From Promethearchaeota archaeon (GTDB lineage Archaea; Asgardarchaeota; Lokiarchaeia; Sigyniarchaeales; SOKP01), in NCBI GenBank assembly GCA_048941015.1, contig JBHLNZ010000095.1, positions 1-10,597 on the forward strand: a stretch of DNA of 10,597 nt, read 5' to 3'. Every line of letters starts with the position of its first letter. The first letter of the stretch is position 1. This document shows, one piece after another, positions 1 through 10,597 of this stretch. Below the pieces are notes generated by a model. It ran no database searches, was not told where the DNA came from, and worked only from the letters and a program-made list of their open reading frames with translations. Both the position numbers and the translations under genes were made by a program.

Positions 1-19
1 AGTTAAACTGTTTGGAAAA

Positions 20-1105
20 TTGAGAAAAATCCATATGGTTGAAGAAATTAAACCTCAAAATAAGTTTATCAAATGGGTAATAATTTTCATAACATTATTC
101 TTGGTTTATATAGTCATTTTCCAAGTTTTGTTTCAAATTTATTTTGTTGAAGATTTAATAAACGTTATTATTCTTTTCGTCATTTTTTTTGTATTTGGTT
201 TTATAATATCTATGATGATTTTTGATAAACTATTCCCTGTTATTAAATTAAATAAAGATTCAATAAGAATAAGGAAGGAAAAGATAAATAAAGGTGTGAA
301 AAGTACTAAGAGTGCTAATTTAAGTGGATTTGCTTCTCATCCTTGGGTATCAACGGTTTGCTTGATATTACTTTATTTTATTTTTCTCTACTTATCAACT
401 TATGTTCCTTACCCCTTACGACGTGAAGATTATTATTTATTTGTATGGAGACAATATCACACACCTGAATTTATTACATTTACTTACATATTTCAATTAT
501 ATTTCTATATACTAATAAAAAATCTAATTCAAGCTATTTTATGGATCTTGATTATCCCAAGATTAATGAAATTGCCGTATGGTAATACCAAAATTTTTGA
601 ATATTTTGAGGATATTGGATTAGGATTTTTGAAACGTATGAGTAAAAGAATAATGTTAGGGATAATGGTGATTTTAGTAATTTTATCACTAAATTTCTTG
701 TTATTTTCCGAATCAGAATTTATTTTAATTCCAAGTTTAATAACGTTTGCTCTTTATTTTGGTTTTGTCTTTTGGGAAGAAGTACTTTTTCGTGGAGTTT
801 TATTAAAGATATTTCTAAGAAGATATTCATTTAAAATAGCTATAATATTAGATGCATTAATCTATACCTTTATAATTAATATTCCGTTTTTAACATCAAT
901 TTCCTATGGTATTAATTACACCTTGCAAGTCTTAATATATCTTATAGTTAGTTTTATAATAGGTTTATCATTTGCCTATATGTGTGCTAAAGCGGAAAGT
1001 CTTATTCCAAGCATTATTGCACAAGTTTTTTTAATTGCCTTTAGTTTTCAACTGTCCAACTATTGGATATTTATGCTATCTGAACCGTTATTATATTTTT
1101 TATAA
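20..1105 (+). CDS. CPBP (CAAX protease/Abi, Rce1-like) family multi-pass membrane protein, catalytically degenerate; start uncertain (TTG 20, ATG 35, or upstream of the window)
   Basis: Highly hydrophobic protein with CPBP motif 1 'FWEEVLFRG' (EE at 776-781) and a typical CPBP C-terminal layout (...SFIIGLSFAYMCAKAESLIPSIIAQ). The expected His residues are absent. The frame is open back to position 2. Confidence 0.75.
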   Translation: MRKIHMVEEIKPQNKFIKWVIIFITLFLVYIVIFQVLFQIYFVEDLINVIILFVIFFVFGFIISMMIFDKLFPVIKLNKDSIRIRKEKINKGVKSTKSANLSGFASHPWVSTVCLILLYFIFLYLSTYVPYPLRREDYYLFVWRQYHTPEFITFTYIFQLYFYILIKNLIQAILWILIIPRLMKLPYGNTKIFEYFEDIGLGFLKRMSKRIMLGIMVILVILSLNFLLFSESEFILIPSLITFALYFGFVFWEEVLFRGVLLKIFLRRYSFKIAIILDALIYTFIINIPFLTSISYGINYTLQVLIYLIVSFIIGLSFAYMCAKAESLIPSIIAQVFLIAFSFQLSNYWIFMLSEPLLYFL

Positions 1106-1123
1106 TTACATTACATAATATTC

Positions 1124-1140
1124 AAGAAAAAAAGAAAAAA
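1124..1140 (-). terminator. Oligo-T archaeal-type terminator for the MDR gene
   Basis: Plus strand aagaaaaaaagaaaaaa is a T-rich tract on the minus strand just after the stop at 1152, between convergent genes. Confidence 0.45.
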
Positions 1141-1151
1141 TTTTATTAAAA

Positions 1152-2165
1152 TTACACTATATCAACTAAAATCTTAATATCATCATGTAAACCCTTAGCT
1201 AAATTTTCTATTTCTTCCGGAACATCGTTAAGAGTTATTGTTTTTGTTACTAATGGCATTACTTCTACTTTATTTTGTTCTATCAATCTAATTGCCGTAC
1301 TAAAGGATTCTTGATCAACTAAATACATCCCTTTCATTGTAAGATTTTTAGTCATAAATTGCAGAAATCCTTTCATCTCGAAAGTTTCGGGATGCATCCC
1401 GATTATAATGATCGTTCCTCCCATTTTAACAAGTTGCATAGAGGTCATTATTGTTTCTGGAATTCCAACACAATCAAACACATAGTCTGGTCCAATTTTA
1501 TTTGTAAGCTTTATAATTTTGCTCCACCTTTTAGGATCAAATACTTCATCTGCTCCTAATTTTAAAGCAATTTTTTGTTTTGCTTCAATCGGTTCAATAA
1601 CATATATATAACTTGCTCCAGCTGCTTTGAGAGCTTGGATAGTCATTAAACCTATTGGACCTGCTCCAAAAACTGCAGCATTATCGCCAACCTTTAAACC
1701 TGACATTCTAACAGCTTGAACTCCATTAGATAAAGGCTCGACTAATGCAGCTTCTTCGAAGGAAACCGAATCTGGTAATTTGTGAATTCTATCTGCTCTA
1801 ACTTTTAAAAATTCAGCCAAAGCTCCATCATGAGTGACACCAATTGTATAAAAGATACACATATTTTCTAAGCCATGATTACAATAATAACAATCTAAGC
1901 AAGGAACATTTGGATTCGCAGTAACCCGGTCACCAACTTTTAATTTCTTCACTTTTTCACCAAGCTCAACGATTTCTCCCGAAAATTCATGTCCTAATAT
2001 AATTTGTTGCGATTCCATCGCTCCTGTTAAATAAGATCCAATGTCAGATCCACAAATTCCACATTTTTGGACTTTAATTAATACTTCATCAGGGCCAATT
2101 TCTGGGTTTGGTAAATCTTCTCTTATTATAACCTTTCGCACTTCTGAAAAATATGCTCCCTTCAT
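1152..2165 (-). CDS. Zinc-dependent medium-chain dehydrogenase/reductase (sorbitol/threonine/butanediol dehydrogenase-like), probably NAD(H)-dependent
   Basis: Catalytic Zn motifs CGICGSD and GHEFSG; structural Zn CLDCYYCNHGLENMC; 'EEAALVEPL'; Rossmann GAGPIG; acidic residue after the second strand (VIEP). SD-like AGGTGTGA at 2177..2170. Confidence 0.93.
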   Translation of the reverse strand: MKGAYFSEVRKVIIREDLPNPEIGPDEVLIKVQKCGICGSDIGSYLTGAMESQQIILGHEFSGEIVELGEKVKKLKVGDRVTANPNVPCLDCYYCNHGLENMCIFYTIGVTHDGALAEFLKVRADRIHKLPDSVSFEEAALVEPLSNGVQAVRMSGLKVGDNAAVFGAGPIGLMTIQALKAAGASYIYVIEPIEAKQKIALKLGADEVFDPKRWSKIIKLTNKIGPDYVFDCVGIPETIMTSMQLVKMGGTIIIIGMHPETFEMKGFLQFMTKNLTMKGMYLVDQESFSTAIRLIEQNKVEVMPLVTKTITLNDVPEEIENLAKGLHDDIKILVDIV

Positions 2166-2200
2166 AAAATCACACCTGTTTTGTAAAATTTAAAAAAAAA

Positions 2201-3922
2201 TTATAATATTCCCATACTACCCATCAGTTTAGTAGCATCAGGGATATCAAATTGAATTTTAACGTCCAATACTGCTGGTTTTCCAGAATTTTTAGCTCTA
2301 TCCAAAGCAGATTTTAATTCATTAGGATCAGTAATAACTTCACTATAGCAACCAAATCCCTCAGCACATTTTGCATAATCGAAAGGTGGAAGATCAACAT
2401 CAATATAGCGTCCGCCTTCAAAAAGTTTTTGTCCTGATTTGATCATGCCCCATGCGTTATTATTTCCAATAACATAAATCAAATTCTTCAATCCTAATCT
2501 TACAGCTGTTTCTAAATCTTGAATATTTATCATGAAACTCCCATCACCAGAAATAGTGACAACTTGGTTATCTGGCTTAGCTAATTTAGCTCCTATTCCA
2601 AAAGGAACTGATGTTCCAAGTTGACCCATGCCAGAAGTTTGAAGCGTAGAAAGTGGATGTCTATCTTTATAGAAATCAATTTGTTCTACTGCGAAGCATA
2701 CAATATCTCCTCCATCCAAAATTAAAATAGCATCATCATCAATCCATTCTAACACTTCTTTAATCATCCGTTTAGGGATAATAGGAATTTTATCTTTGGA
2801 AGATTTCTTAATAGACGTTTGAATAGTTTTTTGTCTAAGATCATGAAGTTCTTCCAACCAATCTCGTTTTTGAATCTTTTCTAAATTTTTTACCTCTTCA
2901 AGGATTTGTTTTAAAAATTGCTTACAATCACCAACAATTCCTAACGTAATGGGCTTCTGACGACCAATTATGGTTGGATCTATATCAACCTGTATCATTT
3001 TTTGTGAATTTTTCCAGAATGGCTCATCTCCATGTCCCATTGTGAAAGAAAATCGACAACCTAATGCTAAAATAACATCAGCTTCAGATGCTGCTTTTAA
3101 ACCAGGTCCAGCAATTGAACAACCTAATAAACATTTTGATTTATTAGACATTGTGCCAATCCCCATAATTGAGGTCATTACTGGTATTTGAAGATATTCG
3201 GCAAATTCATGCAATTCATGCCATGCTTCAGAACGACTAACTCCACCTCCTGATACAATTAATGGTTTTTTTGCTTCTAATAAAAGATTCAAGGCTTTTT
3301 TGATTGCTTCTTTACTAATTGCAGGTTTTTCAAAAGCTCGATACTGTTCTTTATCCCATATAGATAATTTATTTTCCTCAATTTCTTCTAAAAATGCATC
3401 TTCATAAATTTCCAATAATACTGGACGAGGGCGTCCTCCAGTTGCTTCTCGAAAACATTTTTGCACAGATGATGGAATATCTTCAGCTTTCCGGACACTT
3501 TTTTGATATTTTGTAATTGGTTTAAACATCGTTATTTGATCAAGCCCTGCTTGTAAAGAAAAAGAATCTTCCCATTTTGAATTCAATTGTGGTACGATTG
3601 CAATAACGGGAATATTATCTCCCCAAGCAGCATTAATACCTGGTACGAGATCAACTGCTCCAGGACCAGCAGTCCCAAAACATACACCTGGAGTATTAGT
3701 TATTCTTGCCCAAGCATCCGCTGCGTGTGCTGCCGCTTGTTCATGTCTGAATAATATTGTTTGAATACCTTGTTCCCTGCCCCATCGATATACTGCATCA
3801 TACATATTTAGAAATTGCCCTCCTGGTATACCAAACATATATTTAACATTTTCTTTTAGAAGACATTTAATTAAAACGTCTCCTCCATTAACTTTTTTAG
3901 TTTCTTCTGTCAATTTCGGCAC
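2201..3922 (-). CDS. Thiamine-diphosphate-dependent enzyme of the acetolactate synthase superfamily (ILVBL/2-hydroxyacyl-CoA lyase-like); GTG start
   Basis: FGIPGG, catalytic-Glu motif RHEQAAAHAAD, TAGPG, middle domain PLIVSGGGV and QVDID, DGGD, and ThDP/Mg motif GDGSF...GNNNAWG. Confidence 0.92.
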   Translation of the reverse strand: MPKLTEETKKVNGGDVLIKCLLKENVKYMFGIPGGQFLNMYDAVYRWGREQGIQTILFRHEQAAAHAADAWARITNTPGVCFGTAGPGAVDLVPGINAAWGDNIPVIAIVPQLNSKWEDSFSLQAGLDQITMFKPITKYQKSVRKAEDIPSSVQKCFREATGGRPRPVLLEIYEDAFLEEIEENKLSIWDKEQYRAFEKPAISKEAIKKALNLLLEAKKPLIVSGGGVSRSEAWHELHEFAEYLQIPVMTSIMGIGTMSNKSKCLLGCSIAGPGLKAASEADVILALGCRFSFTMGHGDEPFWKNSQKMIQVDIDPTIIGRQKPITLGIVGDCKQFLKQILEEVKNLEKIQKRDWLEELHDLRQKTIQTSIKKSSKDKIPIIPKRMIKEVLEWIDDDAILILDGGDIVCFAVEQIDFYKDRHPLSTLQTSGMGQLGTSVPFGIGAKLAKPDNQVVTISGDGSFMINIQDLETAVRLGLKNLIYVIGNNNAWGMIKSGQKLFEGGRYIDVDLPPFDYAKCAEGFGCYSEVITDPNELKSALDRAKNSGKPAVLDVKIQFDIPDATKLMGSMGIL

Positions 3923-3943
3923 TTTAAATTTTAAATTTATAAT

Positions 3944-3959
3944 TACTTAAAACTTTGTT
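3944..3959 (-). promoter_or_regulatory. Candidate archaeal BRE-TATA promoter for a leaderless ThDP enzyme mRNA
   Basis: Minus strand reads AACAAAG-TTTTAAGTA, ending 21 nt before the GTG at 3922, with no SD upstream. The AT-rich context makes chance matches likely. Confidence 0.35.
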
Positions 3960-3999
3960 AACAGAATTTAAAAAATTAATCCTATCATTTTTGTTCAAT

Positions 4000-5040
4000 T
4001 TAGTAGGTGAATTTTTCTATTGAACCAATATAAGTTTTTAAATCATTTGAAATTTCTCGAATATTATTATTGTCCAAAATTAACTCATGAAGAAAATTTA
4101 GTTTAGTTAACTTTTTAGGTATTTCTTTAATATTATTATGAGATAAATCTAAAACTTCGAGATTTATAAGAGAAAATACGATCTCTGGAACATTTTGGAA
4201 ATTATTCCAACTTAAATTTAAAGATTTAAGACTTTTTAATTGAGAAAAAGATATAGGTAATTCTTTAATATAATTATGACTTAGATCTAAACTTTTTAAT
4301 GCGCTTAGATGTCCAATTGACTCAGGAATTTTAAGATCATTACTTTTAGCTAAATTTAGATCGTTAATTAAATTTAAGTATATCTCTGGAAAAATTAATC
4401 TATTTAATGAATTAAAAATAGTAGGATTTTCTTTAAGCAGAAACCAATTGAAGAAATTGAAATTAAGCGAAATAATTTGTTCATTTTTTATCTCTAACCA
4501 ACTATCTCCAATTTCTTTATAGAAATCATATGTTTTGAGGTCAAGATCGTAACTTGGTCTTTTAGAGGCAAATATAGATTCTATATCCAATATGAATAGT
4601 GCTTCTTTATCAATAATTCCAATATTATTAGCAATTTCTCCTACTTTTTTAACAACAGATTTAATTAATTGATTCCAATTAGGCTTTTTATAATTTTCAG
4701 ATAACTTAATGATTGCATTTAAAACAAGGGGTGATTTATCATGTTCTAGAGCCCAGAGTATTGTATTAAGCCCTTGATCTATATAATTATGAAGAATAAT
4801 TTCAGCTGCTGCACTTCTAATTAGTGCATTTTCATCTGATACAATGCAATTTTCTAATAGTTTAAACAATTTATTACTTTTTGTATGAATTCTTTTAAAA
4901 GCTTTAATGCTTTGTGTTCTAAGGTTTGTATCATCACTTCCTTCGATAAGAGAGATTAATAAATCTATGGCTAAATTTTTATTTATCCTATTATTTTCTA
5001 GGTCTGAGCAAATGGCATTAGGAGTTAAATAAGAATTCAT
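4000..5040 (-). CDS. HEAT-like N-terminal region plus C-terminal leucine-rich repeat protein
   Basis: N-terminal helical repeats (LLISLIEGSDDTNLRTQSIKAF; LLENCIVSDENALIRSAAAEII) and four LxxLxLxxNxI/F units spaced 23 aa apart (LKSLDLSHNYI, LKSLNLSWNNF, LEVLDLSHNNI, LHELILDNNNI). Confidence 0.88.
   Translation of the reverse strand: MNSYLTPNAICSDLENNRINKNLAIDLLISLIEGSDDTNLRTQSIKAFKRIHTKSNKLFKLLENCIVSDENALIRSAAAEIILHNYIDQGLNTILWALEHDKSPLVLNAIIKLSENYKKPNWNQLIKSVVKKVGEIANNIGIIDKEALFILDIESIFASKRPSYDLDLKTYDFYKEIGDSWLEIKNEQIISLNFNFFNWFLLKENPTIFNSLNRLIFPEIYLNLINDLNLAKSNDLKIPESIGHLSALKSLDLSHNYIKELPISFSQLKSLKSLNLSWNNFQNVPEIVFSLINLEVLDLSHNNIKEIPKKLTKLNFLHELILDNNNIREISNDLKTYIGSIEKFTY
4042..4335 (-). repeat. 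Protein-level leucine-rich repeat array (about 4 x 23 aa)
   Basis: Consensus LxxLxxLxLSxNxIxxLP repeated across residues ~236-333 of the 4000..5040 ORF. Confidence 0.85.
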
Positions 5041-5333
5041 TCATTATAAGATAATTAAAAAGAAAATTAAAAATTTAGTTTTATTCGAGTATATTCATAT
5101 ATTAAATTCAAAACTTTTTTCATGTAAAGAATAAATAAAAATGATTAAAATCAATTGTATTCTTTAGAGGTATCCAAATAATTATTCTATCCTAATTAAG
5201 AACTAAATTGTGGAATTTTTTTCCCATCAGATAAATAAGATTTATATCATAAATAAAAAAGATTTATATAATAAGACGGCTAGTTGATACTAAACATTTA
5301 ATTAAACATAAAATGTAAATAGGTTGATAAAAA

Positions 5334-5762
5334 ATGAGTGAAATGAAGAAAAAAGACTCGAATGAATTATTGAACATTTTGATGATAATTATCGGTGCCC
5401 TCTTCGTCTTAATGGGTATACTTAATGTCTTAGCTTGGGCAGGGATTAGCGTAGGATTTGATCTATCCAATCCTGCTATTCAAGCAGCACTTACTATACT
5501 CGGACCTTCAGGCTTAGTTTCTATTGTTCTTGGATTTTGGTGTTTAGTCTCAGGTATTGGCATGTTTCGTGAACAGGAATATGCTATGGGAATGGGTTTA
5601 GTTGTATTAAGTGTTATGGCTGTTCAGACCTTATCGATAATGTTATCTTGGTTTGGTACGACTTGGTATACAAATTGGATTAACTATATTATTTTAGTTG
5701 CATTTTTTATTGGAGCAGTTGGATTCTTTTGGTTACTCTTTACTTACAAAAGATATGATTAG
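5334..5762 (+). CDS. Hypothetical small integral membrane protein (~4 TM helices)
   Basis: 142 aa with four hydrophobic Gly-rich segments; SD-like AGGTTGA at 5321-5327; followed by a T-tract. Confidence 0.8.
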   Translation: MSEMKKKDSNELLNILMIIIGALFVLMGILNVLAWAGISVGFDLSNPAIQAALTILGPSGLVSIVLGFWCLVSGIGMFREQEYAMGMGLVVLSVMAVQTLSIMLSWFGTTWYTNWINYIILVAFFIGAVGFFWLLFTYKRYD

Positions 5763-5797
5763 AATATCTTATTTTAATGAAACAATCTAATTTCAAA

Positions 5798-5820
5798 TTT
5801 TTTTTCTTTTTTCTTTTGTT
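5798..5820 (+). terminator. Oligo-T terminator after the membrane protein gene
   Basis: Long T-rich tract (runs of T broken by single C/G) about 35 nt after the stop. Confidence 0.5.
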
Positions 5821-5910
5821 ATTTTTAATTAATTCTTTTAGGAACTTGGTTTATATCATTAATCAAAGCTACTTCACAAAATAAAAGATTTTAATTACTT
5901 AATCGTCTTA

Positions 5911-5940
5911 TTTATAAATTGGACAATATTATCCTATTTA
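5911..5940 (+). promoter_or_regulatory. Candidate TATA box (TTTATAAA, 5911-5918) overlapped by an imperfect 26-bp inverted repeat (5915-5940)
   Basis: TAAAT-t-GGA-c-AATATT-a-TCC-t-ATTTA, 11 of 13 pairs complementary, ending 25 nt before the ATG at 5966. Confidence 0.4.
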
Positions 5941-5965
5941 AATAATAATAGAGAATGGTAAAATT

Positions 5966-7495
5966 ATGAGAACTTTTGAACAATATGTTGAAGATTTAAA
6001 AAAAATGAAACCAAACATCTACATTGGAGATGAAAAAGTCGGGAGAGATGATCCGAGACTTAAAGGAGGTATGGGAATCATCAAAGAGACGTTTGATAAA
6101 GCACATGACCCTGAATGGGAGGACTTATGTACAGCAACTAGTCATTTAACGGGTAAAAAAATCAATAGATTTACTCATATTCATCAAAGTGAAGAAGACT
6201 TATTAAAGAAGCAAAAAATGACACGTCAACTATGTCATCGTGTTGGAGGATGTATTCAACGCTGTATGGGCATCGATTCACTCAACGCATTAAGCGTTAT
6301 AACCTATGAAATGGACCAAGCACTAGGAACAGATCATTATGAGCGATTTAAGAAATATATGGAATTTTTCCAAGAAAATGATTTGGTTGCGAGTTGCGCA
6401 CAAACCGATGCTAAAGGAGATCGATTAAAAAGACCACATCAACAAGATGATCCCGATCAGTATCTTAGAGTTATTGAAACTAGAGAAGATGGTATAATCG
6501 TTAGGGGATGTAAAGTTAATATTACTAATACTCCATATGCAGATGAATTCATAGCGGTCCCTTGCCGATATATGGGACCAGAAGATAAAGATTATGCTGT
6601 TGCTTTTGCATTACCATCAGATTGGGATGGAGTTAAGTTATTAACAAGACCAGCATGGGTAAGAGAGAGTAAAATTGTAGATTCTCCCGCGTCTAAACTT
6701 GGTGATTGTGAAACTTTTATAATTTTTGATGATGTATTTGTGCCTAAAGAGAGAGTTTTTTTAAATGGGCACGGAGACCCTAGGCAAACTCCTTATGCAG
6801 GATTTCTTGCACTTATGTTTGCACATTATCATAGACACAGTTATACTGGATGCAAACCTGCGATGTCTGAGGTCCTTGCTAGCTCCGCAGCCTTAGTAGC
6901 AGAATATAATGGGATCGAGAAAGCAAGTCATGCTCAAGACAAAATTTCTCATCTCATAGGGACGGCAGAACTTGTTTTTGCCGCTGGTGAATCTAGCGCT
7001 AAACATTCGGAAAAAGCACCGTCTGGAACTCAAGTACCAGACGAGATATTAACCAATGCAGGAAGAAGATTAGCTGGAGAAATGATCTATGAGGAATATA
7101 AAATATTAGCTGATCTTTCAGGGGGAATCATAGCAACTTTACCATTTGAAGGATCATTCTTCAATGAAGAGGTAGGAGAACTTGCTATGAAATATTTGAA
7201 AAGAAATCCTCGAATTAAACCCGAAAATATGTATAAATGTTTTAGGGGTATAGAAACATTAGCTGTTTCAGATCTAGGAGGGCTTATGCAGGTAGCGGGC
7301 ATACATGGTGGTGGTTCTCCTCAAATGGAAACAATTACAATGATGATGCGATACGATACAGAAAGACTGAAAGACATCGCTAAGTACCTTTTCGGAATTA
7401 AGTCGAAATTAAAACCATATGATAGACCGACAGTTACCCCCCGAAAACAATTAGAAAAGTTTAGAAAAGCAATGCAGAGGAAAACAGCAGAATAA
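5966..7495 (+). CDS. 4-hydroxybutyryl-CoA dehydratase/vinylacetyl-CoA delta-isomerase (AbfD)-like FAD/[4Fe-4S] protein (HpaB superfamily); divergent active site
   Basis: Cluster ligands CX3C (CIQRC, 6251-6265) and HX6C (HRHSYTGC, 6830-6853); QTDAKGDR; IFDDVFVPKERVF; C-terminal HGGGSPQ. Confidence 0.88.
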   Translation: MRTFEQYVEDLKKMKPNIYIGDEKVGRDDPRLKGGMGIIKETFDKAHDPEWEDLCTATSHLTGKKINRFTHIHQSEEDLLKKQKMTRQLCHRVGGCIQRCMGIDSLNALSVITYEMDQALGTDHYERFKKYMEFFQENDLVASCAQTDAKGDRLKRPHQQDDPDQYLRVIETREDGIIVRGCKVNITNTPYADEFIAVPCRYMGPEDKDYAVAFALPSDWDGVKLLTRPAWVRESKIVDSPASKLGDCETFIIFDDVFVPKERVFLNGHGDPRQTPYAGFLALMFAHYHRHSYTGCKPAMSEVLASSAALVAEYNGIEKASHAQDKISHLIGTAELVFAAGESSAKHSEKAPSGTQVPDEILTNAGRRLAGEMIYEEYKILADLSGGIIATLPFEGSFFNEEVGELAMKYLKRNPRIKPENMYKCFRGIETLAVSDLGGLMQVAGIHGGGSPQMETITMMMRYDTERLKDIAKYLFGIKSKLKPYDRPTVTPRKQLEKFRKAMQRKTAE

Positions 7496-7497
7496 AA

Positions 7498-7511
7498 TAT
7501 TTTTTTTCTTT
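7498..7511 (+). terminator. Oligo-T terminator after the AbfD-like gene
   Basis: T8 tract followed by CTTT directly after the stop, in the short convergent gap before 7546. Confidence 0.45.
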
Positions 7512-7545
7512 ATTTTAAAATCAATAAAATTTGACTTTAGATTTT

Positions 7546-8508
7546 TTATAATAAACATAAAATGAATGATTGTGAATCTGAAATTGAATCTAAATTAAGT
7601 TTTTTATTTTCTTTTAGGAAATCAGAAATCGGGATTCCTTTTTCAAAAATTTCATTAAATTTATCAAAAAAGATTTGATATATGCTCTTATTTCTAGAAA
7701 TATAATATCCTATTAATTTTTTAGACGGATCAAAACTAGGTTGAATTAGAGCATCATCAGTTAAACTAAAATTGCTAAAATCTTCATCTGTAACATGTAA
7801 TTTTATGCTTCTTATATCTAAATCATATCCTTTCACATGTTCGGATAATAAAGTAAATTCTTCACTTTTCAAAATTTCTTTAATTAATTCTGAGTTAAAT
7901 ATAACTTCAATTTTTAGCTTTTTTAAATTATCTTTAATTTTTATCATACTGTTAGTCATTAGTTCTTTTAATTCCTGAGGAATATTAGATGCCCCAACCT
8001 TCTTTAAGACTGAAATCAAATCGTTCTCATATCTAATTCCCATTGCAATTTTACATTGATTTTCTGCTAAGAAAAATTGGTATGTTTCCTCAAGATTTTT
8101 AAGATTATATTTTATAAATTCTACATATTCTTGGGTAATTTGTTGATCTAATTCATAGTGTTTAATAAATTGATCCAGAGTAGTTTCTGCTTTTTGTTTT
8201 TTTTCTTGAAATTGCTGTGATAATTCTTCAATTCTATTATTGACAATTTTTTGCCATAATGGAATAACCGGGGTTGATAAATGTATTTTCATGGGTCTGT
8301 CGTAAATTTGAACAAGTTCTAACTCGTTTAAAACGGAACAAATTTTATAACCTCTTTTTAACGTAAGGTTAAACTTCGAGCTTACTTCTTTGAGGTTTTC
8401 TATTCTTTTATTTAATAATAAATAATGATAGATCTTTTCAATACCTTTTTCTATCACTCCAATAGTGTCAAATAAATTGCTTAGAGCTAAAAATTGATCA
8501 TCTTCCAT
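7546..8508 (-). CDS. TrmB-like transcriptional regulator (N-terminal winged HTH, coiled coil, C-terminal alpha/beta effector-type domain); start revised to ATG 8508 (320 aa)
   Basis: N-terminus 'EKIYHYLL..ENLKEVSSKFNLTLKRGYKICSVLNELELVQIYDRPMKIHLSTP' fits the TrmB wHTH spacing. It is followed by a coiled coil (NNRIEELSQQFQEKKQKAE) and a C-terminus resembling archaeal TrmB tails (FSLTDD...GYYISRNKSIYQIFFDKFNEIFEKGIPI). SD AGGTGA (8518..8513) lies 4 nt before ATG 8508. Family call is by eye. Confidence 0.62.
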   Translation of the reverse strand: MEDDQFLALSNLFDTIGVIEKGIEKIYHYLLLNKRIENLKEVSSKFNLTLKRGYKICSVLNELELVQIYDRPMKIHLSTPVIPLWQKIVNNRIEELSQQFQEKKQKAETTLDQFIKHYELDQQITQEYVEFIKYNLKNLEETYQFFLAENQCKIAMGIRYENDLISVLKKVGASNIPQELKELMTNSMIKIKDNLKKLKIEVIFNSELIKEILKSEEFTLLSEHVKGYDLDIRSIKLHVTDEDFSNFSLTDDALIQPSFDPSKKLIGYYISRNKSIYQIFFDKFNEIFEKGIPISDFLKENKKLNLDSISDSQSFILCLL

Positions 8509-8512
8509 CAAA

Positions 8513-9055
8513 TCACCTATCTTCAATTTTTTCTAAAGCTTTAACTAAAGTTAACTCAGTTAATACCTCAAATGTTTTATTTACATTTTGACCTGTCTTA
8601 CTAGATATTTCGGCAAAAGATGCCATATTATTTTTTTCTGCTATTTGGATCCCATATTCTCTTGGAACCTTACGCTGATTATCTGCAAGATCAATTTTCG
8701 AACCAACAAGCATAATTGGAATGAGCCCTCCTTTTTGGCGAACTATGCTTGTCCATTCATTAATGTTATCGAGAGTTTGAGGTCGTGTAATATCATAAAG
8801 GAGAAAAGCCGCATTTGCACCTAAACAATAAGTTGGCAAAAGAAATCGAAATCTTTCTTCCCCTCCAACATCCCAAATTTGTAATTTAACCTTTTTTCCT
8901 TGGAGTTCGACAGTTTTAACGTGGAAATCAACTCCAATAGTTAACCGCTCTGATGGATTGAAAAGATTATAGACATAACGCTTAGTGAAGGATGTTTTTC
9001 CTACACTTGCGTCACCTAACAATAAAAGCTTGAAAGTGTAATCATATGTTGGAAT
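8513..9055 (-). CDS. Rab-like small GTPase (Ras superfamily); probable start ATT 9055 (180 aa), ORF track start TTG 9022
   Basis: G1 GDASVGKT, G2/RabF1 TIGVDF, RabF2 KLQIW, G3 DVGG, RabF3-like RFRFLL, RabF4-like YCLGA, RabF5 LLYDIT, G4 SKID, G5 SSK. In-frame upstream codons add IPTYDYTFKLL, matching the Rab beta-1 strand. Confidence 0.93.
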   Translation of the reverse strand: MPTYDYTFKLLLLGDASVGKTSFTKRYVYNLFNPSERLTIGVDFHVKTVELQGKKVKLQIWDVGGEERFRFLLPTYCLGANAAFLLYDITRPQTLDNINEWTSIVRQKGGLIPIMLVGSKIDLADNQRKVPREYGIQIAEKNNMASFAEISSKTGQNVNKTFEVLTELTLVKALEKIEDR

Positions 9056-9062
9056 TTATAGA

Positions 9063-9067
9063 CACCT
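9063..9067 (-). promoter_or_regulatory. Shine-Dalgarno-like site for the Rab-like gene
   Basis: AGGTG located 7 nt upstream of ATT 9055; the same core precedes the MDR and TrmB-like genes. Confidence 0.55.
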
Positions 9068-9289
9068 TTATAAGAATTAATTTTTACCTCAAATTTAATT
9101 AAGCTACGTCATTATGCTAGGGTTTTATTATTTATATAATGTACCCAATTAAAACGATTTTTTGATTATTTCTTATATAAAAATAATTAAAATTGTCTTT
9201 TTTAACTGTTTACTTTTTATTAAAATTATTCATTGTTAGGAACAAGAATCTATATACCTACCAAACCGAGAGAGAAAGCTTTAATTTGT

Positions 9290-9841
9290 TTATTTTTCTT
9301 GAATAATTTCTTTTAAACTCTTATAAATTATAGGATTTAATTCAGTTTCAAGATGATTTTTTAATTCATTTCTAATTATAAAATTTTCTTTATGATTTGA
9401 TAAAAATTTAATAACACTCCATCGTACTGAATCATCTGGATCATCTAATAAAGGTAATAAAAATTTTATATACCTCTCATCGTTATTTTCGTTAATTTTC
9501 ATTACGGCACGGGCACGAACAATAAAATCGGGATTATAAAGTTGAGGTAATAAATGATAATCAATGTTATTATCTTTTACAAAGTTCAAAATAAATTGAA
9601 ATAAATCTTTTTTAAAATTATGAGTTTGATCTAATTCTGCAATAATTCTATTAATAGTATGTTCTGGTATTTTGTTTCCTAATTTCAAAAGACTTTCAAA
9701 AGATACGAAAAAATTTTCTGAAATATCATATTTTAAGTAATTTAAAAGCTTTTTAATTATTTTGTCGCTAACTTTTGAGACCTCTATGACATCCCAGTTA
9801 TCATCTTCCTTGTAATTTTTATTATCCCTTAAATAATTCAC
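9290..9841 (-). CDS. HEAT-repeat (PBS-lyase/HEAT_2-like) protein; GTG start
   Basis: Repeats LLPQLYNPDFIVRARAVMKI and LLPLLDDPDDSVRWSVIKFL, plus a degenerate LKNHLETELNPIIYKSLKEI. Confidence 0.82.
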   Translation of the reverse strand: MNYLRDNKNYKEDDNWDVIEVSKVSDKIIKKLLNYLKYDISENFFVSFESLLKLGNKIPEHTINRIIAELDQTHNFKKDLFQFILNFVKDNNIDYHLLPQLYNPDFIVRARAVMKINENNDERYIKFLLPLLDDPDDSVRWSVIKFLSNHKENFIIRNELKNHLETELNPIIYKSLKEIIQEK

Positions 9842-10265
9842 GACTTTATCGGTTGCATTTTATTCTTAACTTTAATAAAAATTTACGTAAACTTTTTTAA
9901 TATATTTGTTATTAAATTAGAAATAAATAACTCAATCTCAAATTTTTATAAAAAATGTCAACATAAAGCAAAAAAAAATTAAGCGGTTAATATAATATTA
10001 ACTTGTGGATTCTAATTAAATTATATTAGATCAAAAAAACAAGTGAATAAAACTTAAGATGAGAAGAACAAAATTTTAACCAGATTTAATGAATGTGTAA
10101 ATCTTTGACACTATTGTATAAAATATCTTAATACTATGCGCGGTTGAATTAAAACCCAATAATATTAAATTATGAATTACTGTCTTAGTATCTCAAAATA
10201 ATTTTTATTCCCTAAAGAATTATTCTTTTTATATTTTAATCTATTTATAAAAAGGTTAGATTTAA

Positions 10266-10597
10266 TTGAATGACTTATTCTCGGAAATTGATGACATTTT
10301 TCATTCAAAATCTCTAGCAATCTATGGTGTGAGTAGGAAAGGAGGTTTGGGAAATATTTTATTACAGGGATTCATTGATCAAGAATTTCCTAAAATTTTT
10401 ATCATTAATCCTAAAATAACTGAAGCTAATTTTAAAATAATGGGAATACCTATTTTCACAGATTTAAAATCCATTGGAGAGCCTGTAGATCTGGTTGTTT
10501 GCTCCACTCATCCTAAATTTGTTAAAGATATCATTATTGAATGTGGTGAAAACGGAGTAAAAGCAGTAATCATTTTTTCAGCTGGATTTGGTGAAAA
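10266..10597 (+). CDS. ADP-forming acetate/acyl-CoA ligase alpha subunit (CoA-binding domain), truncated by the window end; not in the ORF track
   Basis: Manual translation from TTG 10266 (in-frame TAA just before it, AAAGGT at 10251-10256): MNDLFSEIDDIFHSKSLAIYGVSRKGGLGNILLQGF...IFIINPK...PVDLVVCSTHPKFVKDIIIECGENGVKAVIIFSAGFGE. This matches the ACD pattern 'F.P.SVAVIGAS...VNP...VDLAV...ECG..GVK..II.SAGF.E'. Confidence 0.88.
   Translation, partial: MNDLFSEIDDIFHSKSLAIYGVSRKGGLGNILLQGFIDQEFPKIFIINPKITEANFKIMGIPIFTDLKSIGEPVDLVVCSTHPKFVKDIIIECGENGVKAVIIFSAGFGE

Follow-up and report, generated by a model that had tools for sequence, protein, structure and literature searches.

The GTPase–partner locus and its coupling junction

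We analysed a stretch of 10,597 nucleotides from a Promethearchaeota archaeon (assembly GCA_048941015.1, contig JBHLNZ010000095.1, positions 1 to 10,597; hereafter the window), in which a gene for a Rab-like small GTPase lies directly upstream of a gene for a 320-residue protein, referred to below as the partner. Both genes are on the minus strand. The features that define the pair are as follows.

8513..9055, minus strand: Rab-like small GTPase gene, 180 amino acids (aa), assigned from matches to Pfam Ras, TIGR00231 and Rab sequences in the Protein Data Bank (PDB)
8508..7546, minus strand: partner gene, 320 aa, a single open frame starting with the ATG at 8508
8506..8518, minus strand: coupling junction, in which AGGTGA (8518..8513) holds both the GTPase stop codon TGA and the partner's Shine-Dalgarno (SD) sequence, followed by TTTG and the ATG at 8508..8506
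9063..9067, minus strand: SD-like AGGTG, 7 nt upstream of the ATT that opens the GTPase frame; relatives keep AAAGGTG there

Only 4 nt (TTTG) separate the GTPase stop codon from the partner ATG. A first-pass annotation, made from the letters of the window, had placed the TGA at 8515..8513 inside the SD AGGTGA that precedes the ATG at 8508 and had described the genes as a tightly coupled pair; this is borne out both by the sequence of the window and by the geometry of 75 distinct junctions that we read in related genomes. The sequence TAGGTGATTTRATGG at the junction is invariant across five relatives. In the wider set the gap measures 1–19 nt at 72 of the 75 junctions and an SD-like 4-mer precedes the partner start at 67. 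The arrangement of the window, with TGA within AGGTGA and the ATG 4 nt on, is found at 36/75, and a further ~12/75 have TAG within TAGGTGA and the ATG 8 nt on. That a stop codon within the SD is kept in two registers indicates selection on coupled translation itself. Judged from these sequences, the two genes are a translationally coupled two-gene operon, with a junction arrangement beyond what chance would produce.

The beginning of the GTPase gene is less conventional. Its frame opens at position 9055 with ATT, immediately after a TAA (9058-9056), and runs to the TGA at 8515..8513; ahead of the P-loop this frame contains no ATG, GTG or TTG. The ATT at 9055..9053 stands three codons before a conserved YDY, and the corresponding column in the orthologues is occupied by ATG, ATT, ATA, GTG or TTG, always behind AAGGTG. 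Because the codon in this column varies while it always stands behind AAGGTG, ATT (and ATA) seems to be used as a start codon, and the gene probably begins at the ATT at 9055..9053.

Further upstream, about 30 nt from the GTPase start, the sequence TTGAGGT lies at 9086-9092 on the minus strand, positioned between a TATA-like TTAATTAAAT and the SD sequence, and TTGAGG(T/A) is kept in the same and in neighbouring genera. A small upstream open reading frame at this element was considered and ruled out, the reading frames being inconsistent among relatives. We also searched for an operator, comparing 26 representative 260-nt upstream regions with 3000 composition-matched genome pieces for palindromes of 4-5-nt half-sites with spacers of 0-11 nt and for 6-8-mers. 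This yielded only AT-rich, TATA-like words, the best with a p value of 4e-5 before correction for thousands of tests, which is not significant. A scan with bacterial promoter and terminator models gave 0 terminators, a bacterial model being uninformative for an archaeon.

A Rab-like GTPase beside a protein of TrmB-like architecture

The GTPase frame matches Pfam Ras with an E value of 5.3e-45 (153 bits), and matches Roc and TIGR00231 as well. By sequence, its closest solved structures are Rab10, Rab8, Rab11 and Sec4 (from 1.3e-38), and each of the top 60 PDB sequence matches is a Rab, Sec4 or Ypt protein. The Rab-type motifs TIGVDF (switch I) and KLQIWD are present, as is the set of motifs expected of the Ras superfamily: GDASVGKT as G1, T39 as the G2 threonine, DVGG as DxxG and SSK as G5. 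Two of the motifs depart from the Rab pattern. G3 reads WDVGGEE in place of the Rab DTAGQE, and in an alignment with Rab10 residue E66 falls on the catalytic Gln; G4 reads SKID, with Ser for the Asn of NKxD. Both departures extend beyond the window, WDxGGE being invariant in 49/49 orthologues of the paired GTPase and G4 having mostly Ser in the orthogroup. The glutamate is also found outside the orthogroup: ~14 of the ~50 small-GTPase frames in the source genome carry WDxxGE, and the Gln-to-Glu change thus marks a subfamily and not the paired GTPase alone. Several of these ~14 have no recognisable NKxD, so that the genome holds a subfamily of considerable size in which the motifs for catalysis and base recognition are non-standard.

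The protein ends in EKIEDR and lacks the cysteines on which Rab geranylgeranylation depends, and a C-terminal Cys motif was found in none of 49-51 orthologues. This agrees with the soluble Rab-like switch proposed in the first-pass annotation, and from its sequence the paired GTPase is a predicted cytosolic switch of Rab type that has no lipid anchor.

Sequence comparison places the partner far less readily. The window's protein gave nothing significant in Pfam, NCBIfam or a phmmer search of the PDB (in Pfam only noise at E values up to 10), and a profile built from 33 relatives likewise found nothing significant in the PDB, where E2F8 was listed at an E value of 1.1. Within the partner family, 13/26 members have weak matches to Pfam TrmB (PF01978), the best at 9.3e-05 and none shown reaching the 25.6-bit cut-off. 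Weak matches to E2F_TDP, the eukaryotic E2F/DP winged helix, occur in 8/26 members (best 2.3e-4); these probably reflect general similarity among winged helix-turn-helix (wHTH) domains only.

Structure is more informative. An AlphaFold2 model of the partner, computed on the alignment of 33 relatives, has a mean predicted local distance difference test (pLDDT) score of 86.6, which falls below 50 in a linker at residues 123-126, and divides the chain into four segments.

8269..8508, minus strand: residues 1-80, TrmB-type wHTH (from the model, VIA comparison and conservation)
8134..8268, minus strand: residues 81-125, hairpin of two helices (81-97 and 101-117) and low-confidence linker (from the model)
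7609..8133, minus strand: residues 126-300, phospholipase D (PLD)-like alpha/beta domain (from VIA, Foldseek and conservation)
7546..7608, minus strand: residues 301-320 with the stop codon, helical tail of low conservation (from the model and conservation)

Foldseek, which the first-pass annotation had suggested as a check on the 320-aa protein, returned TrmBL2 (5bpd, E 1.6e-11, ~295 aligned columns) as the top match and TrmB (3qph, 3.2e-06) as the next, making these the best full-length structural matches, followed by the PLD-fold proteins NucT, Zucchini, FAM83B and MITD1. VIA gave the same picture for the whole chain, with Z scores of 10.6 against TrmBL2 5box (217 residues) and 7.7 against TrmB 3qph (206 residues), and also for its parts. 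The wHTH matched ST1889 (Z 10.8), AbfR2 (9.3) and TFE-alpha (7.9); the PLD-like domain matched NucT (Z 9.4, residues 126-294), FAM83B (9.3), Nuc (9.0) and Zucchini (7.9). In full-length alignments to TrmBL2 and TrmB, the hairpin corresponds to the dimerisation coiled coil of the TrmB family and the PLD-like domain occupies the place of the effector-sensing domain. The model therefore combines a wHTH, a coiled-coil helix and a PLD-like domain in one chain, as in TrmB. The likeness stops short of the C-terminus: the match to the TrmB sugar-binding domain (2f5t, Z 7.3) covers chain residues 110-246 and the first subdomain only, and the PLD-like domain ends near residue 300, where the second sugar-binding subdomain of TrmB is replaced by one short unconserved helix. 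The wHTH, coiled coil and TrmB-like tail described in the first-pass annotation thus hold at the level of fold, whereas the family-level match to Pfam TrmB and the second sugar-binding subdomain do not.

The PLD-like domain has no HKD motif (HxK(x)4D), the catalytic signature of PLD superfamily enzymes, and the sole His in the equivalent strand, H238, precedes V-T and is not conserved. What is conserved in this domain is a block of the form NFxLxxxxLIQPSFDP...G...I..F..K. We profiled conservation in 51 partners from the window's family and its sister family, counting columns conserved at ≥90%. Such columns make up 34% of the wHTH, 17% of the PLD-like domain, 11% of the hairpin and none of the tail (301-320). 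Residues invariant in all 51 include E20 and K21 of helix 2, Y27, K51, R52, Y54 and K55 of the recognition helix, and R71, P72 and M73 of the wing. This is the conservation expected of a wHTH with a conserved nucleic-acid target, although it is not proof of DNA binding; taken with the model, it suggests that the partner winged helix most likely binds DNA.

Co-inheritance of the two genes and their surroundings

The partner belongs to a narrow family. A word-indexed search returned 524 relatives, nearly all exactly 320 aa long and from metagenomic genomes of Loki-type Promethearchaeota/Promethearchaeia, and when 1.84 billion cluster representatives were searched exhaustively, only 50 matches appeared, ~25 of them full length. 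In a survey of 301 Asgard genomes, sampled evenly, the partner was present in 60/68 genomes of the window's family and in 7/7 of a sister family of the same Lokiarchaeial order; searched with the window's protein, it was not found in the 28 other Asgard families sampled. Carriers include the closed genome of Ca. Harpocratesius repetitus, a member of the sister family (pair MCF2140688.1 / MCF2140689.1). None of the relatives found was labelled as one of the cultured strains MK-D1 or L. ossiferum. The source genome has a single copy.

Wherever enough upstream DNA was available, the partner was found with the GTPase. A synteny survey, which the first-pass annotation had named as a check on the pair, found a same-strand orthologue of the GTPase directly upstream of the partner at 56/56 loci with enough upstream DNA. 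This set includes the sister family, in which partner identity drops to 29-37%. In a second set, drawn from named genome records, the genes are paired at 77/80 loci, and no unpaired case occurs among loci with 600 nt or more of upstream sequence.

Five near-complete genomes of the window's family have no partner gene, also by family-profile search. In four of them (92-99% complete) the best GTPase match is 76-83% identical to a different paralogue, encoded on contig C109 of the source genome, and only 56-65% identical to the paired GTPase; being nearer to the C109 paralogue, these matches indicate that the paired GTPase is missing too. The fifth genome, G174, is of the same genus as the window and ~100% complete, and retains a decayed GTPase remnant (contig C107, L148:339-1022) in which the P-loop reads RDDANAGKA, DxxG has become DIGE, a TAA interrupts the frame and G4 is lacking. 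No partner gene lies downstream of this remnant. The pairing of the two genes therefore extends to their disappearance: they are kept together and lost together. G174 also offers a natural 'knock-out' genome for comparison.

The association does not extend to the closest relatives of the paired GTPase in the genome. None of the nearest paralogues, among ~50 in the genome, has a partner-like neighbour. The idea of a general theme among close paralogues was examined and dropped, since the genes that follow these encode an aldo-keto reductase or metallo-beta-lactamase-fold proteins and show no profile similarity to the partner. A second, distinct association of a TrmB-type regulator with a Rab-like GTPase does exist in the source genome, on contig C137.

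L155:1683-2534 (contig C137), minus strand: canonical TrmB gene, 283 aa, Pfam TrmB at 59 bits
L155:1026-1592 (contig C137), minus strand: Rab-like GTPase gene, after the TrmB gene with a 90-nt spacer, not coupled

A GTPase gene follows relatives of this regulator at 40/44 loci, which come from several other Asgard families as well as from the window's order. Compared with the window pair the genes stand in the opposite order, with TrmB first and the GTPase second. The GTPases of the two modules share 31% identity, and alignment of the two regulators is weak, covering the wHTH and coil (hhalign E 0.007). These values leave unsupported the possibility that the window pair is a recent duplicate of the canonical TrmB-GTPase module; given the low similarity of both proteins, the window pair is better regarded as a separate family limited to one order. 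The independent recurrence of a TrmB-type protein beside a Rab-like GTPase strengthens the case that such proteins work jointly in Asgard archaea. The C137 GTPase gene, like that of the window, has no canonical start ahead of the P-loop and opens with ATT, 8 nt after GGAGG (L155:1570-1600).

Around the pair, the window encodes a HEAT-repeat protein, an HpaB-like protein, a transmembrane protein, a leucine-rich repeat (LRR)/HEAT protein, a thiamine pyrophosphate (TPP) enzyme and an alcohol dehydrogenase (ADH). The neighbours that bear on the pair are listed here.

9290..9841, minus strand: HEAT-repeat protein gene, 183 aa (Pfam HEAT_2, 2.2e-08)
5966-7495, plus strand: HpaB / 4-hydroxybutyryl-CoA-dehydratase-like gene, convergent with the partner gene and just downstream of it
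5334-5762, plus strand: four-helix membrane protein gene, 142 aa, no family; recurs beside the pair in two genera
4000-5040, minus strand: LRR and HEAT-repeat protein gene; recurs beside the pair in two genera

Of the other neighbours, only the HEAT-repeat gene is recurrent. It usually lies upstream on the same strand, is present at most loci, including those of the sister family and of the genus labelled g4, and falls within 2.5 kb of the pair at 43/80 further loci, making a third component of the system possible. The HpaB/AbfD-like gene follows the partner in the window's genus and in some other genera; other genera lack it, and there the gene for the 142-aa membrane protein abuts the partner, which marks the HpaB-like gene as inserted into an older neighbourhood. 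An LRR protein encoded separately but close to a Ras-like GTPase loosely recalls the Roco proteins. No roadblock or kinase gene was found in conserved neighbour positions, so that the locus does not have the composition of a bacterial conservon.

Several lines of evidence thus tie the two genes to each other: strict pairing across two families, a coupling junction conserved in two registers and joint loss. We consider it very likely that the GTPase and its partner are functionally linked.

A candidate GTPase-to-transcription relay and its relation to known systems

The reading that we favour, with a probability of roughly 0.4, is that the nucleotide state of the GTPase gates DNA binding by the TrmB-fold factor. 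It builds on the folds of the two proteins, the strictness of their pairing, the conservation of the coupling junction, their joint loss and decay, the single copy of the partner and the concentration of its strongest conservation on the DNA-reading face. In this scheme the two proteins would be produced at a constant ratio and would bind each other, with the GTPase standing in for the small-molecule ligand of TrmB. The hairpin or the PLD-like domain of the partner might sense the GDP/GTP state, which would alter operator binding by a dimeric winged helix, and so the transcriptional output; upstream of this, the HEAT-repeat neighbour may serve as a regulator or adaptor. In its most specific form, which we advance tentatively, the Rab-like GTPase would itself be the 'ligand' of a TrmB-fold transcription factor, its nucleotide-state-dependent docking on the hairpin or PLD-like domain switching DNA binding.

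Several considerations weigh against a gated transcription factor. Physical interaction of the proteins and DNA binding by the partner are what we infer, as is the direction of signal flow. The window's protein is not recognised by Pfam TrmB (PF01978), no conserved palindrome or operator was found in the 26 regions upstream of the GTPase gene, and no fusion of GTPase and partner was found among longer proteins (561-2000 aa), this last being weak evidence. Winged helices can also serve protein-protein contacts, and TrmBL2, which matches the partner best in structure, is a chromatin protein that acts independently of a ligand. In the single prokaryotic analogue that has been studied, the HTH-type neighbour acts on the GTPase itself: MfpC, a DUF742 protein with a typical helix-turn-helix (HTH), is the guanine nucleotide exchange factor (GEF) of the Ras-like GTPase MfpB in actinobacterial conservons (PMC11343762).

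The precedent of MfpC raises the question of whether the partner is a dedicated regulator of its GTPase (a GEF, a GTPase-activating protein (GAP), a factor resembling a GDP-dissociation inhibitor (GDI) or a chaperone) and not a transcription factor, its winged helix and/or PLD-like domain touching the switch regions and the output lying elsewhere, for example with the HEAT or LRR proteins encoded nearby. A GTPase and its cognate regulator would likewise be expected to show strict 1:1 pairing, translational coupling and co-loss, the Gln-to-Glu and Asn-to-Ser changes point to an unusual mode of catalysis or exchange for which a dedicated partner may be necessary, and the lack of an operator motif in the 26 upstream regions would be as expected. 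Among the fold matches, moreover, the PLD-fold pseudoenzymes FAM83 and MITD1 are protein- or membrane-binding modules. Such a role leaves unexplained why the invariant basic and aromatic residues sit in the DNA-reading parts of TrmB-type proteins, the recognition helix and the wing, and why the architecture of the whole chain is that of the DNA-binding proteins TrmBL2 and TrmB; the folds of GEFs and GAPs (roadblock, longin, DENN, TBC) were also not detected in Pfam and VIA comparisons. We regard a dedicated regulator as somewhat unlikely, but as the main and a serious rival of the gated transcription factor. The same conservation of the wHTH, the best conserved segment of the partner, is accommodated if the protein is a local transcription factor of its own operon that senses a small molecule through the PLD-like domain and makes no contact with the GTPase. 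TrmB-family regulators are often encoded beside their target genes, and co-transcription and co-loss would suit a regulator with this operon as its only target. Synthesis in a fixed ratio, implied by the stop-in-SD coupling in two registers, is however uncommon between a regulator and what it regulates. The regulator gene follows the gene that it would control, the search upstream of the GTPase gene yielded no conserved operator, and the partner lacks the sugar-binding C-subdomain of TrmB. That TrmB-type proteins paired with Rab-like GTPases recur independently also argues for more than local autoregulation, which we judge unlikely. A general chromatin protein like TrmBL2, adjacent to the GTPase through inherited gene order only, would account for the top structural match and for the lack of a specific operator. 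Inherited order fails to explain the co-loss and co-decay, or a junction that is conserved down to ~30% protein identity while the surrounding genes vary, and a chromatin protein is not expected to be dispensable in five close relatives; this explanation is highly improbable.

Asgard archaea encode dozens of eukaryote-like small GTPases whose partners and functions are unassigned. The paired orthogroup is an exception in having one fixed partner of recognisable architecture, co-inherited and co-lost with it, and the two proteins, being small and soluble, can be expressed and tested directly. If the GTPase does gate a DNA-binding protein, Rab-like switches would have had a non-trafficking, transcription-linked role before eukaryogenesis; if the partner is instead a GEF or GAP, it would represent a new regulator fold for Ras-superfamily proteins. 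Were the GTPase to act as the ligand, the pair would constitute a direct relay from a small GTPase to transcription in the closest archaeal relatives of eukaryotes and, considered with the wider TrmB-then-GTPase module, would suggest that part of the Asgard Rab-like repertoire originally served gene regulation, not membrane traffic.

Soluble Ras-superfamily switches that bind a transcription regulator according to nucleotide state are known from eukaryotes in kappaB-Ras/IkappaB and the Rag GTPases/TFEB, and kappaB-Ras, too, has no lipid anchor and has substituted catalytic residues. The partners in these systems are not homologous to that of the window and there is no operon, so that the comparison is one of analogy only. 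The closest relatives in architecture are TrmBL2 and TrmB of Thermococcales (5bpd/5box/5bqt, 3qph, 2f5t), which have the same domain order as the partner, without significant sequence similarity to it and, in TrmB, with the second sugar-binding subdomain that the partner lacks. Unlike them, the partner is specified by a gene that lies downstream of, and is coupled to, that of a small GTPase, an arrangement that we have not seen described for TrmB or TrmBL2, and it is limited to one Lokiarchaeial order.

Full-text searches of the literature on Asgard and Lokiarchaeota GTPases, TrmB, winged helices and operons found no description of the GTPase-partner pairing. The first-pass annotation had known of no described system of this kind; as far as we have searched, this stands for the Asgard pair itself, but TrmB architecture is already known and so are bacterial operons that join a small GTPase to an HTH protein (PMC11343762, PMC4316618). 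The actinobacterial conservon (MfpB-MfpC-MfpD-MfpE, Cvn; PMC11343762, PMC4316618) resembles the window pair in carrying a Ras-superfamily GTPase and an HTH protein in one operon, a linkage that there implies direct functional coupling of the two. It differs in being bacterial, in having an MglA-like and not a Rab-like GTPase, in having as HTH protein a DUF742 protein of ~120 aa and not a TrmB-fold protein, and in needing a roadblock GAP and a histidine kinase, both absent at the window locus. A second bacterial parallel is the conserved neighbourhood of group 3 MglA with a REC-wHTH protein, which its authors read as a tie to transcription, citing no experimental work (PMC4316618); it is likewise a small GTPase beside a winged helix, although the GTPase is of MglA type and the neighbour is built like a response regulator. 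For Asgard archaea, the main structural study, by Tran et al. (PMC10933270), states that the small GTPase genes of MK-D1 generally do not lie in operons with regulators, which makes the assignment of partners difficult, and reports that Thor-Rab has no C-terminal prenylation cysteines, as is the case for the paired GTPase. Compared with Asgard Rab-like GTPases such as Thor-Rab, the paired orthogroup is set apart by a strict operon partner, an invariant Gln-to-Glu change in G3 and a mostly Ser G4.

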